Shown here: positions 5,751-57,923 of the stretch, one piece after another
Layout: each line of letters opens with the position of its first letter
Position numbering within the stretch: the stretch's first letter is position 1
IMG/VR virus record: IMGVR_UViG_3300012979_001162
Coordinates: 1-64,000 of that record
DNA from: a virus
Lineage: Duplodnaviria; Caudoviricetes
Direction: 5' to 3' (one strand)
Length of the DNA: 64,000 nucleotides
Notes under the pieces: generated by a model
Told to the model about the DNA's origin: nothing
Seen by the model: only the letters and a program-made list of their open reading frames with translations
The model's database searches: none
Made by a program: the position numbers and the translations under genes

Positions 5751-5963
5751 ATGCAACAGAAATCAATTATCCTCGAAATGGACGAGGCAAAAAGAGAATT
5801 AATACAATGCGCCAATAATATTATGCAGAAACACGGACTCAATTGTTATTTGATGGAGCCGGCGTTTGCAGAATTGTATGCCGAAGTTAAAGCCGAGGCC
5901 CAAAGAGAGTTGGTGCAGGCAAGACAAGCGGCGATGGCTGCTCAAACACCACAAAATGATTAA
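5751..5963 (+). CDS. Small hypothetical protein
   Basis: AAGGAG RBS, 70 aa, follows tail fibre. Confidence 0.7.
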   Translation: MQQKSIILEMDEAKRELIQCANNIMQKHGLNCYLMEPAFAELYAEVKAEAQRELVQARQAAMAAQTPQND

Positions 5964-19581: not shown

Positions 19582-19769
19582 TAAGTATTAAACTTACTTA
19601 GTCCGCTATAATACGAAAGTTTATAGTGTATCCCTTTTAATTGCTGGGACTTCCTTAGAGTCTCACAAACAACAACGTGGTTGGTGACAACGAGCGTGAA
19701 TGTTTAAAAATTGTGAGAATTGGATAATCAGCAGCCAAGATTTGTAATATTATTTGTTTATTTTGCTAA

Positions 19770-19798
19770 TTGACAAAACAAAATGATTATGGTATAAT
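19770..19798 (+). promoter_or_regulatory. Consensus sigma-A promoter inside intron 3, with the 17-bp box in its spacer
   Basis: TTGACA-N17-TATAAT with extended TG. Confidence 0.8.
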
Positions 19799-20023
19799 AT
19801 TACAAATAAGGTTCAACGGCCATTCCCTGAAATGGGATTAGGGGCAAGTGTCCCGAAATGGAGGGTGCCTAAGGTCATTACAGTACAAAATGATTATGGC
19901 AAATGATATGGTCTGCACTTCGATGAAAGTCGGAGAAATTACTGAAAAGTAAACTGTGAGATTTAACGAATCTAAAATTAACAAATTATACAATACAAAA
20001 TGATTTAACAAGGAGGTGAGAAT

Positions 20024-48391: not shown

Positions 48392-50356
48392 TTACTCCTC
48401 CAACATTTTCATTAATTCATCTTCATATACAACCTTGACACCAAGACTCTGTGCTTTGGTAAGTTTAGACCCAGCCTTTTCACCACAGAAGAGCACATCG
48501 AGATTTTTGCTTACGCTACTTACAAACTTAGCACCCTTGGCCTCAAGTTTTTCTTTGAGTACATCTCTGCTCTGTGAGAAACTTCCGGTAATACAGAATT
48601 TCAAACCATTGAGAGGATTATCTACAACCTCTACCTTAGTCTGCACAACAAATCTCATCTCGGCAGCCAAATCAACGATTTCTGCCTCATTTTCCGTTAA
48701 GTACTTAGTGATTTCTGCAGAAGTTTTATCGCCAACACCTTCTAATTCACACCAATTATAGCCATCCTCAAATGCCTTATAAAACGCATTAAAATCACCG
48801 TTGAATGCATCTGCAAGAGTTTTAGATGCAGACTTGCCTACGCCATCTATACCGAGTGCAGTAATGAAATTTTCTAGCTTAACATCCCTTGAATTTTCAA
48901 TGGATTTTAGCAGAGTACTTACGGATTTTTCGCCCATACCTTCTAACCTAGTAAGTGATTGTTTGTGTTCGTTAAGGTGATAAATATCCTTATAAGTGTG
49001 CAGAAAATCGTGTGAAATTAGAGTTTCTAGCGTCTTCTCTGAGAGTCCTCGAATATCCATACAATTTTTGCTTACAAAATGAGTAAATTTAGCAAGGCTT
49101 CTAGAGGGACAGTGTTCGTTGGGGCAATACAATACGTTAGCCGTTCCGGTATTCTTGATAATAAGCTCCGTGCCACAGGAAGGGCATTTATCAATGATTG
49201 GTAGCTGATAATTCTCAGAGTTATAATCCAAATTAACCTCGATGGCAGGAATAACCATATTTCGTTTACTGCAACAAATTCGATCTCCAATTCTTAATTT
49301 TAAATTATTGATATAGTCCAAATTGTGTAGTGTGGCACGAGAAACCTGTGAATCTAAAATAGATATTGCGTCGAACAAACCAGTAGGCGTAACAATTCCG
49401 TTTCGCGATGTATTCCACTCTATCCCTCTAAATACCGTCTCAACTAAATCATCCTGTTCCTTCTTTGCGAGACCATAGTTATAGTGATGACTTGTTCTGC
49501 CAAGCGACATGCCATACGCATAGTCGTCATAACGAATAACGACTCCATCGCACGGAATACCATTATCATCTGCATATTTGTGAACCATACTGATAATGTC
49601 TGGGGTTTCCTCCATCCCCATATTACCAGTCTTTATGCGATAGATTACCTCGAACCCAAGACTTTCAAGAATGTTAAATCTTTCATTTAACGAATTAATA
49701 TCATCCATTCCTTCTATAACATCGAAGGCCATAAAATGTATATGTCTTTTTGCACACTCGCTACTATCAAGAAGTGAAAGACTTCCACTTGCTAGATTTC
49801 TACAATTAGCATATTTATCTTCTTCCGGCAAAGATGCGTTAATTTTATCAAGTTCATCTTTTAGTATAACGCTCTCTCCAACAACAGTAAAATCTTTGCC
49901 ATAATTAACTTTTAACGGAATATTAAAAGTTTTTGCATTATGGGTGATTAGGCTACCCTCAACTCCATTGCCACGAGTTGATGCTTCAATAAGCTCCGCC
50001 GTTACGCCGTCATATGATTTATAGATCAACTTGGTTGTCAATCCATCGCCTTTAATCATAAATAAAACATCTTTATCACCCGTAAACTTTACAACGTCTT
50101 CTACGGATTTCGTTTTTGCCAAACTCAATAAAGGAATGTTGTGTTGTACCTTAGGTAATGTATCTACCACCTCGTATCCAACAGATTGCGTTGGTGAATT
50201 GGCAAAATAACAATTCGTTTCTTTTTCGAGTTCTGCCAACTCATCAAAATATCGATCATATACATCGTCTGTAACCAATGGCTGGTGATTATAATAAGCA
50301 TCTCTGTATTGATTACATAATTCAATTAATTCTTTTATCTTCTTTATCTGCTTCAT
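48392..50356 (-). CDS. ligA: NAD-dependent DNA ligase
   Basis: AYY...YD, LLSL, KGDG, STRGNG, RNLASG, Zn finger, HhH, BRCT (CITGS...GSKLTKA). Confidence 0.95.
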   Translation of the reverse strand: MKQIKKIKELIELCNQYRDAYYNHQPLVTDDVYDRYFDELAELEKETNCYFANSPTQSVGYEVVDTLPKVQHNIPLLSLAKTKSVEDVVKFTGDKDVLFMIKGDGLTTKLIYKSYDGVTAELIEASTRGNGVEGSLITHNAKTFNIPLKVNYGKDFTVVGESVILKDELDKINASLPEEDKYANCRNLASGSLSLLDSSECAKRHIHFMAFDVIEGMDDINSLNERFNILESLGFEVIYRIKTGNMGMEETPDIISMVHKYADDNGIPCDGVVIRYDDYAYGMSLGRTSHHYNYGLAKKEQDDLVETVFRGIEWNTSRNGIVTPTGLFDAISILDSQVSRATLHNLDYINNLKLRIGDRICCSKRNMVIPAIEVNLDYNSENYQLPIIDKCPSCGTELIIKNTGTANVLYCPNEHCPSRSLAKFTHFVSKNCMDIRGLSEKTLETLISHDFLHTYKDIYHLNEHKQSLTRLEGMGEKSVSTLLKSIENSRDVKLENFITALGIDGVGKSASKTLADAFNGDFNAFYKAFEDGYNWCELEGVGDKTSAEITKYLTENEAEIVDLAAEMRFVVQTKVEVVDNPLNGLKFCITGSFSQSRDVLKEKLEAKGAKFVSSVSKNLDVLFCGEKAGSKLTKAQSLGVKVVYEDELMKMLEE

Positions 50357-51080
50357 CTTCTTTGTACCTCCAAATAAATCCCCCAGAACTTTGTGATCCT
50401 CCACGACAACATCTGGTAATTCCGGTATAGCAAATACCTAAAGCGATTGAGGCATCCTTAGCACATTCCCACGCCTTGATAAAATTTCCGTCCATATCAT
50501 ATTGGAAAGCTATTCTTGCCCTAGGATTTTCTGAGCCAATATTCTGGTCTTTGTGAATGTTTGACATATGTTGTCTATATTCTTCGTTCTTCCATCTATC
50601 TTTTGCCAAATCGCTTAGTAGTTGCTTTGTTTCCTCTGAATGTTCTTTATTGAAGAATGGATTGTTTTCTCCTGCCAATTTGTGATTTCCATAATTGGGG
50701 TTCTTGCTTCCTATATATGTTTTGGCATGTTCGCTTCTGCGCATTCTTTCAGTATCACTTATAGGTATCCCCTCGGCTCCACCCTCTCCACCAGAAGAAA
50801 TGTTATAGCCATATAATTTGTTGTTTGATTTGTAATAAGCAATCAATTCCTTTTCTTTGTTTGCCGCCTCTTCTTTTGGTAAGGCGGTAAACACTATTTC
50901 ATGTTCAAAATTATCCCAACCATATTTTTGAATTGCACTGTTGAAATATTGATTATTTTTATATCCATTACCCTTATGCCATCGTTTTTCTGGTGGTTCT
51001 TGGCATGTCATCCCAATATATACTTTTCCACTTGGGCTGGTGTGCTTGTATACACAATAAAGTTTTTCTTCATTTCCCAT
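50322..51080 (-). CDS. Free-standing GIY-YIG endonuclease (NUMOD3/NUMOD1)
   Basis: CVYKH...VYIG, GYNISSGG, NPFFNKEHSEETK, C-terminal HTH; 3' end overlaps ligA start. Confidence 0.88.
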   Translation of the reverse strand: MGNEEKLYCVYKHTSPSGKVYIGMTCQEPPEKRWHKGNGYKNNQYFNSAIQKYGWDNFEHEIVFTALPKEEAANKEKELIAYYKSNNKLYGYNISSGGEGGAEGIPISDTERMRRSEHAKTYIGSKNPNYGNHKLAGENNPFFNKEHSEETKQLLSDLAKDRWKNEEYRQHMSNIHKDQNIGSENPRARIAFQYDMDGNFIKAWECAKDASIALGICYTGITRCCRGGSQSSGGFIWRYKEDEADKEDKRIN

Positions 51081-53813: not shown

Positions 53814-54905
53814 CTATATTATTTGATTATTCTGCAAATTGGATTGGTTATCATTTAAAGAGTTGTACCATTCTATAAAATCATCTATTTGCTTTTTTAC
53901 TTTTTCTGACTTCACAGGGTTAATCCACGGTATTCTGTATATTACAAATCCATTTGCGGTTAATCTTTTATCTCGTAGTGTATCATGTTCTTTTCTCTCT
54001 TCGTATTGATGCTGCTTCCCATCAATCTCAAGATCAATATATCCATCGATTAAAAAATCTAAAAAATAGCATCCTTGCTCATCAATGCCTATATCTGTTT
54101 TCTTGAGAGTATATTCTGGTTCATATTGTAGTTTATTATTTGTTAACACTCTCTCCCAAAATAACTCGGCATAACTACGAATCTTTCTTGTTTTCCATCC
54201 AATGTGTTTGCCCTCGTCAATCAATCTTTTCTGAACTTCTGTTCCGATTTTAGATCTTTTGGCATGAGAGACTTCGGATGTAGTAACATAAGATTCACCG
54301 AATTCATTTCTTAAGTCATTTATGGTTTTATCGTGTTGCTTAAGGTGGCTAGCATTAATGTTTGCTAGTCTGACATTACAATAAGGGCAAACAACAAAGT
54401 CAACACCTTCAACTTTGTCTAATGTGTAATGTTTTAAATTTCTATACGTTATCACACCTTGCACGTATAAATCTTTTGTACCGTTCGCATATTCATTGAA
54501 ATTTATACGCACATCACATTCATTTTGCTGTTTTTCAGTTTGTTGAGCATATCTTTCCCTCAAGGAATTTGATATTTTAATTTTACTTTCGGAAGTATGT
54601 ATGCGTCCTTTGTTGTTGTGTTTTGCAGCACAACTACTGCCGCAAAATCGTTTTCTTTGATAATCTGCAAAGCTATTTTTTGCACTAATTGGAATTAATT
54701 TTCCACACTCTTCACAACACTTCGTTACAATTTCTCTTTTATGGTTACATTGCTTGGCAACACCAATCGCTCGTTTCGGCATGTCATGCTCAAAGCCACA
54801 TATAGTACACTTAACATGATACATTTTATGACCGTCATTCGATTTATAGCCGCAAAGATACAATACCTTATGAATGCCTATAACCGTTCCTATGATATCA
54901 TCCAT
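53814..54905 (-). CDS. Free-standing homing-endonuclease-like protein (Zn fingers, NUMOD3, DUF559/Vsr-like domain) at the 3' end of the tRNA cluster
   Basis: GGAGG then ATG 54905; SYAE...YFLDF...LEIDGKQH...DTLRD..L...G..IYRI. Confidence 0.8.
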   Translation of the reverse strand: MDDIIGTVIGIHKVLYLCGYKSNDGHKMYHVKCTICGFEHDMPKRAIGVAKQCNHKREIVTKCCEECGKLIPISAKNSFADYQRKRFCGSSCAAKHNNKGRIHTSESKIKISNSLRERYAQQTEKQQNECDVRINFNEYANGTKDLYVQGVITYRNLKHYTLDKVEGVDFVVCPYCNVRLANINASHLKQHDKTINDLRNEFGESYVTTSEVSHAKRSKIGTEVQKRLIDEGKHIGWKTRKIRSYAELFWERVLTNNKLQYEPEYTLKKTDIGIDEQGCYFLDFLIDGYIDLEIDGKQHQYEERKEHDTLRDKRLTANGFVIYRIPWINPVKSEKVKKQIDDFIEWYNSLNDNQSNLQNNQII

Positions 54906-55060
54906 ATATTCCCTCCAATCATTTGTTTTGTTATGGTACCAGATGTTAGTACTGCCCTGATCCTCGAAACCCCAAATTTCGCATGCTTCTTTCACACCCC
55001 ATCTGATATTTTGTAAGTTCTTAATTATAGGGAAAGAACTGTGACTGTAAGAAAACCATT

Positions 55061-55152
55061 TGGCTGGGAAGATGGGATTTGAACCCATGTAGGGAACTTC
55101 TTCCTTTGTGCCAGAGTCAAAGTCTGGTGCCTTACCGCTTGGCGACTTCCCA
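55061..55152 (-). tRNA. tRNA-Gln(UUG) with a 22-nt variable region
   Basis: TGGGAAG/CTTCCCA acceptor, CCAGA-CTTTGAC-TCTGG, ATGGG-TTCAAAT-CCCAT, GCCA end. Confidence 0.88.
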
Positions 55153-55240
55153 ATATCGAAGGGCGATTTTTAACTCTTTCGAGAGGCCAATCGCCGTAGC
55201 CTAGCAAATCGTATATACGATCAGCCGATTCATTATAAGA

Positions 55241-55336
55241 TGGCGGAAGACTTCGGACTTGAACCGAAACGCCGAATGACTTCGACTACTCATTGATTAG
55301 CAATCAACTGCCTTACCAAATTAGGCTTAGCCTTCC
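55241..55336 (-). tRNA. tRNA-Ser(GCU)
   Basis: GGAAGGC/GTCTTCC acceptor, GTTGA-TTGCTAA-TCAAT, long V arm, TTCGG-TTCAAGT-CCGAA, GCCA end. Confidence 0.9.
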
Positions 55337-56470
55337 ATAAGTACTCCAACAACCGCTATTGATAAGTAGCGATACGGTGATTTACCCTGATCCGCAACAG
55401 CAACACTACACAACCCGACCTTTTATGTGTCGTATATCGGGTAACGACTATCTCTGTTGTTGGCTTTATTGCACCATCCGTGAAAACGAATGGAGGAACC
55501 TTTACCACGACTAGTGGGTAGGCATTGTGGCTGGACTTACATCTCGGTGAGAAGGCCCTTCCACCCCAATCCGATAGGCTGTTCAACTCTCTCCATTTAC
55601 TACAGCTTCTTACAACGCTACTAAATACTTCGTTTGCAACCTCCATAATTAGCACTTCGTAGCACCTATCTCGCATATAAACCCTTGATTCGCTTATAAA
55701 GCAGGTTCAAGAAACCCTAACGAAATCGCACCGCAGGACGTAATACGAAATCTCAACTCTTCCCACACAAGGATGGGCGAGCAATGACTACTATCCCGAC
55801 ATACGAACCAGCTTTACACTTATTCGTGTCCGTTTTTGTTGTTTGCATAACCGCTCAGCACGGCATTGTGCTTATCAATGTCTTGGCACATTTGAATAGT
55901 AGTAGTGTGAGAGAAAATTATGGGGAACATCCCCATACGAACGTAAAATTCGCATCCCAAGGTACTTCGTGTTGACGAAGCAACTACTAGCCTTGGAGAC
56001 GCTACGGCTCACTCTAAAAATCTCGTTTATTTCACAAGTTGTCATCTTGTTATTTCCACTACCAACGACAAAGATTTCTGCCGTTTCACAATTCCACCCT
56101 GGGACACTTACGCCGTAGCAGAGGTGCGGGTGGTCAATTTTTGACAACTTAATGTTGTCTACCAGTTGCATTTAGCAACGCAGGGGGTTTCGCCTATTTC
56201 GTTTTTCATAGCAAGCCTACATACGACCTCATCTTGCATTTCCTACCGGACTTCGGTTTACTGCAGACACCGAAGTGGACTCGTATGCTTCCAATGGCTT
56301 TCTTTCCAGCCTAGACCAAGTTCATCTTACACTTGGAGAATTTGTCATCATTTTATCCAACTTTTGATGATGACCCAAAAGCTCGTTGCGTTCATCTATG
56401 GGTTAGACTACTTGTCGCTATAACAATACCCTCCTCATAAGTATCTTATAGAAGCAACCCCAAATGGCGC
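55337..56470 (-). ncRNA. Candidate large structured non-coding RNA (or several), ~1.1 kb
   Basis: No credible ORF or RBS; more GC-rich than other intergenic DNA; many perfect stems; bracketed by co-oriented tRNAs. Confidence 0.6.
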
Positions 56471-56472
56471 TT

Positions 56473-56548
56473 TGGTGCAGAAGGTAAGATTCAAACTTAC
56501 GAATACTAGTTTTTTATCACTAGTGCTTTCCAACTAAGCTACTTCTGC
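56473..56548 (-). tRNA. tRNA-like RNA with non-canonical 8-nt anticodon loop (pseudo-tRNA)
   Basis: GCAGAAG/CTTCTGC, GCTT/AAGC, CTAGT-GATAAAAA-ACTAG, GTAAG-TTTGAAT-CTTAC, ACCA end. Confidence 0.7.
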
Positions 56549-56857
56549 GCATGCCCCACACTTAACGTTAACAGGCTCCTACTGACCAGTGGGCTACGGC
56601 TATGACATTACTTCATTCTGCTTCGAAGGGGCATTTGTTATCCGCATTTCCTTACGGGCAAGACCGGCTTCAAACAAATGAGCTCTCAACTTCTCAAGAG
56701 TTTCTTTTAAATAATGGCTCGGCTCGTCACCCATTCCGTATGGGTCGCTTTATATGCCATTATGCCTTCTTACTTGCGCTCCATTTTCGTACATCGCTAT
56801 TCGACACGGTTGATACTCTTTTTTCATCAGTGGGATCACAACTTAACTAATCTGGTT

Positions 56858-56940
56858 TGGCAGGGGAGCGGCGACTCGAACACCGATAGCCTTTCGGCAC
56901 AGTTTTGGAGACTGCTGTCTTACCATTAGACGACTCCCCT
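56858..56940 (-). tRNA. tRNA-Trp(CCA) with an extra variable-arm hairpin
   Basis: AGGGGAG/CTCCCCT, GCAGT-CTCCAAA-ACTGT, V region GCC-GAAA-GGC-TAT, CGGTG-TTCGAGT-CGCCG, GCCA end. Confidence 0.9.
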
Positions 56941-57020
56941 ATGTAAGAGACTTCTAAAACCTACAAGGAAACTCCGTCTCGATGTTTTTTATACAGGAGG
57001 TACTCGTATGATGTAACGAG

Positions 57021-57097
57021 TGGTGATCACACTGGCATTCGAAGCCAGACTGGATGCGTTCTAAGCACATTGCCTCTACCTGTTGGGCTATGCGGTC
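57021..57097 (-). tRNA. tRNA-Leu(UAG) with short variable loop
   Basis: Leu-type D arm GCCCAACAGGTAGAGGC, ATGTG-CTTAGAA-CGCAT, 5-nt V loop, CTGGC-TTCGAAT-GCCAG, ACCA end; one C-A mismatch in acceptor. Confidence 0.82.
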
Positions 57098-57108: not shown

Positions 57109-57822
57109 TCAAACTTGAATGCCATATACAGAAAACCACGTCTGATGTGATTTTCTATGTTTTGTTGATGGAGGTTCTTTGAGCATAGCAGAGATAAGCT
57201 CTTTTGTTTTGTTTACTCCGTACTCTCGTACGGATTTGTTGATAGTATTTATGCCTAATCCCAATTTTTGGGCCCACTGTTGTCCTGTTAATACTTCACT
57301 CTCAACTTCAATCCAATTGACCTTGCCTGCTCTTCTAGAATTTTCCTCCAACGGAATCCATCGACAGTTACTGGGGGAATAGTCTACGTCGGGATCAATT
57401 CTATCTATGGTTAGAAATTCTTCGTACCCATTGTTCAAAGCCCACTTTTCAAATTTACCAGGGTTATCCAACCACTCTTGACACACTTTAATACCCTTTT
57501 CCCCATACCACCTATAGTTTTTGTCATTTGGATTATAGCATCGAACAATGATGCCTCTGAAGATCTTACCAAGACGACTATTCTCCCATTTATGCCTATT
57601 AATAATGTACTCTCCGTTAGTTCTTAAGTGGGTGCATTTATTTGATAGTTTGCTTGGTGCAGAAACCCCACTATATGTAAATTCTGTTTCAAAACCACAT
57701 TCGTTGCATACACATTTATAAATTCGATGTCTGTACTTATCGGTTTTATCTGTTATATCTGCTATTGTATAGATTCCGTGCACTTCTCCAATGTGAGATC
57801 TTGGATCAAATTTTTCTACCAT
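57109..57822 (-). CDS. Free-standing HNH-like homing endonuclease at the 5' end of the tRNA cluster
   Basis: RCYNPN..Y..YG.KGIKVC.EW...LTIDRID...YSPSNCRW. Confidence 0.85.
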   Translation of the reverse strand: MVEKFDPRSHIGEVHGIYTIADITDKTDKYRHRIYKCVCNECGFETEFTYSGVSAPSKLSNKCTHLRTNGEYIINRHKWENSRLGKIFRGIIVRCYNPNDKNYRWYGEKGIKVCQEWLDNPGKFEKWALNNGYEEFLTIDRIDPDVDYSPSNCRWIPLEENSRRAGKVNWIEVESEVLTGQQWAQKLGLGINTINKSVREYGVNKTKELISAMLKEPPSTKHRKSHQTWFSVYGIQV

Positions 57823-57839
57823 AATATTATGTCCTTACT

Positions 57840-57923
57840 AATCATGCTGTATTGTGTACTAATTATACCACAATCATTTTGTATTGTCAATATATTTCCG
57901 TAATCGTTTACAATCTATTTACA
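57840..57923 (-). promoter_or_regulatory. Composite promoter heading the endonuclease-tRNA cluster
   Basis: TGTAAA-N5-TGTAAA(57923-07), N16, TTGACA(57890)-N17-TATAAT(57867), box in spacer (57888-72) and degenerate box (57856-40). Confidence 0.85.

Follow-up and report, generated by a model that had tools for sequence, protein, structure and literature searches.

In the textbook view, long variable arms in bacterial transfer RNAs (tRNAs) are limited to the Leu, Ser, Tyr and Sec isotypes, and the arm is a class marker for aminoacyl-tRNA synthetases and for some toxins. Several published cases connect the arm with defence systems or toxins. For example, PtuAB of Septu and of retron-Eco7 cuts the variable arm of tRNA-Tyr, and a distinctive variable loop is reported to make the tRNA-Tyr of phage T5 resistant (PMC13096335). 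[quoted passage not shown] The general idea that variable-arm architecture matters in the conflict between phage and host thus has published precedent. In this study, we analysed a stretch of 64,000 nucleotides (nt), hereafter the window, which is the first 64 kb of the virus genome IMGVR_UViG_3300012979_001162 in IMG/VR (162,648 bases, approximately 95% complete). It contains an array of tRNA genes in which tRNA-Gln(UUG) and tRNA-Trp(CCA) carry an additional variable arm, while tRNA-Leu(UAG) has none. We believe, with a probability of roughly 50%, that these are working cognate phage tRNAs with a swapped arm class, and that the purpose of the swap would be evasion of enzymes that act on the variable region.

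ARAGORN called four tRNA genes on the minus strand, namely Gln(ttg), Ser(gct), Trp(cca) and Leu(tag). The three genes with an exchanged arm class and their variable regions are as follows, with stems given in base pairs (bp):
55061-55152, minus strand: tRNA-Gln(UUG), 92 nt, with an encoded CCA; called by ARAGORN and found by the Rfam tRNA model at 59.6 bits.
55089-55110, minus strand: variable region of tRNA-Gln, 22 nt, made of 6 unpaired nt, a 4-bp stem GGAA/UUCC with the loop GAAG, and 4 unpaired nt ending in C48.
56858-56940, minus strand: tRNA-Trp(CCA), 83 nt, with an encoded CCA; called by ARAGORN and found by the Rfam tRNA model at 50.7 bits, with a fold z score of -3.13.
56886-56898, minus strand: variable region of tRNA-Trp, 13 nt, made of the hairpin GCC-GAAA-GGC and 3 unpaired nt.
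57021-57097, minus strand: tRNA-Leu(UAG), 77 nt, with A73 and CCA; called by ARAGORN.
57049-57053, minus strand: variable loop of tRNA-Leu, 5 nt.

The original prediction, made from the letters of the window, had described a tRNA set with swapped variable-arm classes, and ARAGORN, the alignment to the Rfam tRNA model and reading by hand all agree with it. It had also described the remaining stems, the CCA ends and the G73/A73 discriminators as intact, which is correct as well, with the caveat of one mismatch in Leu, where C3 faces A70. In the Rfam alignment, the variable regions appeared as inserts of 19 nt in Gln and 10 nt in Trp, and the minimum-energy fold of each gene was a cloverleaf with an extra hairpin. 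Compared with shuffled sequences, the isolated variable region folded better than 94% of the shuffles for Gln and better than 99% for Trp. Both hairpins are inserted between positions 45 and 46, as class II arms are, and the flanking core nucleotides are retained. Neither variable region has the 4-5 nt of a class I loop, and both have the stem-loop of at least 10 nt at 45/46 that marks class II. In all tRNAs of the array, the acceptor and T stems are arranged 7/5 and the CCA 3' end is encoded; the discriminator is G73 in Gln, Trp and Ser and A73 in Leu.

Compared with canonical bacterial tRNA-Gln(UUG) and tRNA-Trp(CCA), the acceptor stems, discriminators, D, anticodon and T arms and CCA ends are the same, whereas the variable regions have 22 and 13 nt with a hairpin instead of 4-5 nt. 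Compared with class II tRNAs (Leu, Ser, bacterial Tyr, Sec), the placement of the stem-loop at 45/46 and the 7/5 cloverleaf are the same, but the isotypes are Gln and Trp, the stems have only 3-4 bp and the D arms are those of the class I parents. Nematode nev-tRNAs and allo-tRNAs are likewise natural tRNAs that join a long arm to an unusual anticodon, going by the accounts in PMC3333845 and PMC5389517. By the former account, the nev-tRNAs are class II bodies with Gly or Ile anticodons that are charged with Leu, whereas the bodies and identity sets in the window are those of Gln and Trp with G73. A nev-like origin would call for a class II body with A73, and the window genes are instead homologous to unarmed Gln and Trp tRNAs. 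Nor are they allo-tRNAs, whose acceptor/T stems are 8/4 or 9/3 (PMC5389517) and not 7/5. In the engineered aptamer-tagged tRNAs of Mukai 2020 (PMC7590224), a small foreign hairpin also sits at the arm position; those tRNAs are synthetic and built on an allo-tRNA chassis, whereas the window's are natural. The literature searches made turned up no account of naturally occurring armed Gln or Trp tRNAs, and they are absent from a review of non-canonical tRNAs (PMC7609411) and from reviews of tRNA identity.

The identity elements of both armed tRNAs are complete. The tRNA-Gln has the UUG anticodon (gene positions 33-35), U1-A72, G2-C71, G3-C70 and G73, and the tRNA-Trp has the CCA anticodon, A1-U72, G-C pairs from 2-71 to 5-68 and G73; the stems of both are perfectly paired. 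These correspond to the bacterial Gln and Trp identity sets, and U1-A72 of tRNA-Gln is also read in the route through the GatCAB amidotransferase (PMC9976931). When the 163-kb record was searched for the synthetase cores of the Trp/Tyr, Glu/Gln and class IIa families and for a CCA-adding enzyme, none was found, which points to charging by host enzymes. These would be GlnRS, or GluRS plus GatCAB, for Gln, TrpRS for Trp and LeuRS for Leu. RtcB and Rnl2-type ligases were also searched for in the phage genome and not found. In the conserved columns of the phage DNA polymerase, all seven Trp positions are UGG and 10 of 11 Gln positions are kept, and nothing suggests a recoding. CAA makes up 62% of the Gln codons of the phage, and CUA makes up 8% of its Leu codons. 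EF-Tu and the ribosome use class II tRNAs normally. Engineered tRNAs with an aptamer hairpin as an arm still translate, according to the account given in PMC7590224. Since class II tRNAs decode normally and engineered hairpins are tolerated at the arm position, normal decoding is expected, that is, of CAA/CAG by Gln, UGG by Trp and CUA/CUG by Leu. We consider it probable that the armed and arm-less tRNAs are functional cognate decoders.

Armed tRNAs of these two isotypes recur in other phage genomes. IMG/VR was scanned with degenerate patterns for Gln(UUG) and Trp(CCA) that required a variable region of at least 10 nt. The Gln pattern matched 59 loci with 28 distinct sequences, nearly all of them confirmed by ARAGORN. 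The Trp pattern matched 38 loci, of which ARAGORN confirmed 29, five more look armed by eye and four are chance matches. In the same database, a pattern for unarmed Gln(UUG) matched at least 118 loci, and the exact pattern of the window Gln had no match. Pooling IMG/VR, the matches in the genome collection and the window gave 23 distinct Gln and 16 distinct Trp variable regions, nearly all of which are hairpins; their sequences are unrelated, and their placement between positions 45 and 46 is constant. The layout of the armed Gln is CA (in most), 1-4 further free nt, a stem of 3-7 bp and 2-4 free nt ending in C, and that of the armed Trp is 0-1 free nt, a stem of 3-6 bp, often with a GAAA, UUCG, GCAA or GUGA cap, and 3 free nt. 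The full cognate identity sets are retained throughout both families.

Armed Gln is rare in cellular genomes and common in viral contigs. In one genome each of approximately 185,000 prokaryote species, there were 13 matches to the armed-Gln pattern, almost all in dense tRNA arrays of gut Clostridia genome bins, which may be prophages or misbinned phage contigs. Several of these arrays carry a transfer-messenger RNA (tmRNA), an amber suppressor or a four-base anticodon. Among GenBank phage records, two armed Trp types had no match, and the only record matched by one armed Gln type was an unannotated fragment of a faecal phage; the search gave no cultured phage that carries these arms.

Several observations were made in the arrays gathered along the way. 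Long arms also occur on Lys(UUU), Ile(UAU), Met, Thr, Asn, Gly and Arg tRNAs (loci L022, L023, L028, L031, L035, L037, L047, L086, L089 and L090), and we dropped the idea that arms are tolerated solely on substrates of class I synthetases, as Lys, Thr, Asn and Gly tRNAs are among those armed elsewhere. Locus L037 has armed Trp and armed Ile alongside three arm-less Leu and two arm-less Tyr, and arm-less Tyr is present in L020, L037 and L116. A Ruminococcus genome bin (L114:1758-2526) combines armed Gln, arm-less Leu(UAA), tmRNA and an amber-reading tRNA(cta) that ARAGORN labels as Pyl. A Salinisphaera genome bin (L117:3750-3951) has an adjacent pair of Gln(UUG) genes, one of 75 nt and one armed with 90 nt, and this armed Gln is the only one found outside arrays of the gut Clostridia type. 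A skipping-rope RNA (Rfam, 71.6 bits) was found in other phage arrays, as were tRNAs to which ARAGORN gives the four-base anticodons aata (95 nt), ttct and cgtt (L002:5349-5428, 5784-5878; L113:4244-4323; L039:3584-3664).

A homologue of the window's Gln arm was found on a 204-kb contig (L039) on which Gln and Trp are both armed. The armed Trp, of 92 nt, is conserved in all four contigs formed by L039 and its siblings L018, L029 and L050, but at the place of the armed Gln the siblings have one of 75 nt. Armed and unarmed Gln occupy one locus in two clades with clade-specific flanks, namely in the window and L014 and in L039 and its siblings L018 and L050; the leader and trailer of L039 match those of L018 and L050, and the leader of the window gene matches that of L014. 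The armed alleles of the window and L039 have the anticodon stem CCAGA/UCUGG and the first five variable nt in common, and their 4-bp arms are in register with two pairs doubly compensated (GGAA/UUCC versus GGUG/CACU). The window Gln is a mosaic, in which the leader and 5' half are 93% identical to L014 and the middle resembles L039. Taken together, these alignments make the armed Gln segment look like a portable piece that was moved between phage tRNA genes by recombination. Three endonuclease-type genes lie in or beside the array:
57109-57822, minus strand: HNH homing-type endonuclease gene, 12 nt upstream of tRNA-Leu (PHROGs phrog_3377, E 2.7e-40).
53814-55088, minus strand: open reading frame (ORF) of a 424-amino-acid protein with a C-terminal, endonuclease-like DUF559 (Pfam PF04480, E 8.3e-5), directly downstream of tRNA-Gln; its called start falls within the tRNA-Gln gene.
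50322-51080, minus strand: GIY-YIG endonuclease gene with NUMOD motifs, the third homing-type gene in or beside the array.
The mosaic Gln together with these flanking genes fits recombination within tRNA genes, like that described for SegB of T-even phages; SegB cleaves inside T4-type tRNA gene regions and often occurs in linkage with tRNA arrays (PMC2330249, PMC13096335).

Fourteen related loci were brought in through the polymerase gene. In L014, the polymerase is 94% identical and the order is the same (Trp, a tRNA with an 8-nt anticodon loop, a long gap, Ser, Gln), with Trp and Gln of 75 nt each. The genes of L003 and L005 are unarmed too; the Trp arm is absent from L003, L014 and L249, and the syntenic Gln genes of L014 and L003 lack the Gln arm. 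Over Leu(UAG), the spacer, Trp and the next spacer, the metagenome contig L246 is 91% identical, and compared with the syntenic Trp of L246 (variable loop of 4 nt) the window Trp has a clean 9-nt insert in the variable region and, outside the insert, three doubly compensated stem pairs. A metagenome scan with a conserved 32-mer gave six loci in one assembly, in which the Trp genes are unarmed. Judged by these sequence comparisons, both arms are specific to the window lineage. The original prediction had named inserts that are unique and unconserved as the finding that would speak against it, and this was borne out by half: the Trp insert is unique and the nearest relatives are unarmed, but the design recurs and the Gln arm has a covarying homologue. 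In a sequencing-run search, bovine-gut metagenomes contained parts of the window stretch, and otherwise only related runs matched.

The arm-less Leu was given a wider comparison. With A73, GG in the D loop (G18 G19) and the T loop UUCGAAU, the window gene has the features of a type I tRNA-Leu apart from the mismatched pair C3-A70. Folded alone, it does not have a cloverleaf as its minimum-energy structure, and we accept it as a tRNA on the ARAGORN call and the covariation of its family. The gene is 80-84% identical over 70 nt to 77-nt tRNA-Leu genes in 26 Pseudomonas phage records (Otagovirus), and arm-less Leu genes (UAG, UAA, CAA) that resemble it are present in L005, L014, L114, L246 and L248. 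The orthologue at L246:2261-2337 is arm-less and without the C3-A70 mismatch, and it differs from the window gene by three doubly compensated pairs. In an alignment of eight arm-less Leu genes, 98% of the cells in stem columns are paired and 19 of 20 pairs covary; none of 500 shuffles was as good, and slid controls came nowhere near. The covariation supports the arm-less Leu as a real family, which is old and widespread in phages and lost its arm. Among the gathered loci, a sample picked for armed Gln or Trp and thus non-random, the arm is missing from 12 of 40 distinct Leu genes and from 4 of 15 distinct Tyr genes. The LeuRS of E. coli needs A73 and features of the D loop and T loop, not the arm (PMC9976931), and the LeuRS of Streptomyces charges a natural type I tRNA-Leu (PMC6614811). 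The window Leu and the Otagovirus genes have a Leu anticodon, A73 and a 5-nt loop in common with the type I tRNA-Leu(CAA) of Streptomyces coelicolor (PMC6614811), whereas the phage family spans UAG, UAA and CAA and very different hosts; its leucylation would be expected by precedent.

In our preferred reading, the window's Gln and Trp are ordinary bacterial-type tRNAs with a small hairpin inserted between positions 45 and 46; they would be charged by the host and decode normally, and the altered outline would no longer be recognised by enzymes of the host or of rival phages that read or cut the variable region. Deletion of the arm from Leu would remove the handle of such an enzyme, and addition of an arm to Gln and Trp could obstruct enzymes that bind the compact core of class I tRNAs. 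The armed Gln segment may move by recombination, and homing-type endonuclease genes flank its array. Taken by itself, the proposal that the arms serve defence evasion is tentative and less likely than not, being drawn by analogy with the published cases. That arm-class swapping is a general phage strategy, which hides the phage's own tRNAs from host or rival-phage enzymes that read or cut overall tRNA architecture, is about as doubtful; if it were so, recombination within tRNA genes would carry armed segments from phage to phage, and this would be a second tRNA-based route of counter-defence besides changes of the anticodon loop. A related known system, T5 tRNA-Tyr against PtuAB of retron-Eco7 and Septu, likewise has a phage tRNA of altered shape, which is reported to defeat the host nuclease, and arrays linked to homing endonucleases (PMC11555353, PMC13096335). 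The published escapes alter an existing arm or the anticodon loop (PMC10264068), whereas in the window the anticodon loops are unchanged and an arm is added or deleted. Neither arm addition to class I tRNAs nor arm deletion from Leu has been described as a phage escape in published cases. Bacterial Schlafen was considered as further support and set aside, as the enzyme studied is not class II-specific, unlike human SLFN11.

Several points weigh against this reading. The published precedents are cases of removing or altering an existing arm and not of adding one. We know of no defence in which class I Gln or Trp tRNAs are attacked from the side of the variable loop. The closest relatives lack both arms, which makes the arms dispensable and means that they could be neutral, and the armed/unarmed polymorphism among near relatives would suit a conditional benefit and neutrality equally. 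The exact Trp insert was present only in the window genome among all sequences fetched. The Leu gene has the C3-A70 mismatch and is beyond the reach of the Rfam tRNA model, even at E<=10. In four sequencing runs, no contig spans either arm, and the very deep read cover at 55109-55156 consists of the tRNA-Gln 5' halves of other organisms. We regard an assembly artefact as unlikely, since the arms are perfect hairpins and the homologue of the Gln arm comes from another sample.

The main alternative is that the arms are tolerated, selectively neutral hairpin insertions that drift in fast-evolving phage arrays, with the tRNAs still decoding. A tRNA tolerates extra nucleotides nowhere but in its variable loop, the same-locus orthologues of the nearest relatives are unarmed, armed and unarmed Gln alleles alternate within clades, the arm sequences are very diverse and arms occur sporadically on seven further isotypes. 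Drift alone accounts less readily for nearly all arms forming clean hairpins whose spacing depends on the isotype (in Trp 0-1 nt precede the stem and 3 follow it, in Gln 3-6 precede and 2-4 follow), for the covarying arm stems of the window and L039, for a 92-nt armed Trp kept in four contigs, or for the rarity in cells of armed Gln, whose few matches lie mostly in phage-like tRNA arrays. We consider neutrality rather unlikely. Selection could also act on the DNA, if the inserts change homing-endonuclease sites in tRNA genes (compare SegB of T4), thereby protecting the allele or marking a gene-conversion tract, and the hairpin shape merely keeps the tRNA usable. The mosaic Gln gene, the HNH gene 12 nt from Leu, the DUF559 gene beside Gln and the GIY-YIG/NUMOD gene agree with this, as do the reported cutting by SegB in tRNA gene regions and its linkage to arrays; it would leave unexplained both the old, conserved arm-less Leu family and the isotype-specific geometry of the arms, and we think it improbable.

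An identity switch would have more drastic consequences, for the arm would recruit SerRS (or LeuRS or TyrRS) and UGG and CAA/CAG would partly be read as another amino acid, as with nev-tRNAs, in which, by the account in PMC3333845, charging follows the arm and not the anticodon. Both armed tRNAs do have G73 and G2-C71 in common with bacterial tRNA-Ser, and with 22 nt the variable region of Gln comes close in length to that of the tRNA-Ser encoded by the phage. But G1-C72, which is conserved in bacterial tRNA-Ser, is replaced by U1-A72 in Gln and A1-U72 in Trp, which are determinants of Gln and Trp (PMC9976931), and the arm stems, of 4 bp in Gln and 3 bp in Trp, are shorter than the 6-bp stem of the phage tRNA-Ser. 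The cognate sets are complete across the armed families, the bodies derive from Gln and Trp and not from Leu or Ser tRNAs, and the conserved Trp and Gln positions of the polymerase still have UGG and Gln codons. Charging with Ser on Trp or Gln codons, which the original prediction had raised, is disfavoured by the same facts, and we hold any such switch to be the least probable of the explanations weighed here. Hardly more probable is a role outside translation, in which a phage protein or RNA, such as the 1.1-kb ORF-free RNA region of the array, would use the arm as a handle, or the tRNAs would be decoys for variable-arm enzymes. GNRA-type and other tetraloops are common on the arms, and an ORF-free region that is unclassified and richer in GC lies next to the array; the full acceptor, anticodon and CCA features are kept, though, and would be superfluous in a pure handle or decoy. 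The suggestion in the original prediction that the arms dock on the neighbouring large RNA found no support, as armed Gln and Trp occur in arrays of many unrelated phages, where the presence of a comparable RNA was not checked. Altered T-box sensing, also suggested there, is unlikely on general grounds, class II tRNAs being normal T-box ligands.

Under our preferred reading of working cognate tRNAs with a swapped arm class, natural armed Gln and Trp with cognate identity sets would show that the class boundary is plastic, and that GlnRS or GluRS-GatCAB and TrpRS tolerate an arm; the arm-less Leu would do likewise for the loss of one. If the swap defeats tRNA-directed immunity, it would be a new principle in the tRNA arms race, and it would also offer naturally tested scaffolds for orthogonal or tagged tRNAs. 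If the arms are neutral, they still map where tRNAs can grow without loss of function.

The remaining features of the array are as follows:
55241-55336, minus strand: tRNA-Ser(GCU) of the usual class II type, in which the variable stem has 6 bp, the first pair is G1-C72 and the discriminator is G73; supported by ARAGORN, Rfam and the fold.
56473-56548, minus strand: fifth tRNA, with the 8-nt anticodon loop GAUAAAAA, A73 and CCA; found by Rfam at 56.3 bits (hit 56476-56548), with a fold z score of -3.55.
57862-57890, minus strand: candidate sigma-70-type promoter, with TG and a 12/12 match to the consensus, upstream of the HNH gene and the tRNA array.

The fifth tRNA was absent from the list in the original prediction and was missed by ARAGORN. 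In its orthologue at L244:5080-5155, the acceptor, anticodon and T stems covary and the 8-nt loop is the same except for the first base; the four-base anticodon taaa is ARAGORN's reading of the 8-nt-loop tRNA. Candidate readings are a decoder of quadruplets or frameshifts and an A34 Phe-type tRNA, and a pattern scan of IMG/VR for it gave no match. Directly upstream of it, an element of approximately 84 nt (56551-56634, minus strand) is near-invariant in eight otherwise shuffled tRNA arrays, with counterparts at L014:17250-17335 and in L244-L249 and with the closing stem AUGCCCC/GGGGCAU. This element matched no Rfam family and its fold equals that of shuffles (z -0.11); RNA-library contigs match it exactly at 56576-56631. 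The 1.1-kb ORF-free region (55337-56470, minus strand, 44% G+C) between the 8-nt-loop tRNA and tRNA-Ser is unclassified and GC-richer, and its conservation in L014 and L003 is limited to patches. For the ORF-free stretches 55337-56470 and 56549-56857, no Rfam family was found at the gathering threshold or at E<=10. The span 55785-56458 is covered by a contig of 929 nt from an RNA library of bovine gut, in which two blocks are swapped for other sequence. Elsewhere in the window, a group I intron (Rfam RF00028, 64.9 bits) lies at 19586-19935 on the plus strand, between two long plus-strand ORFs.

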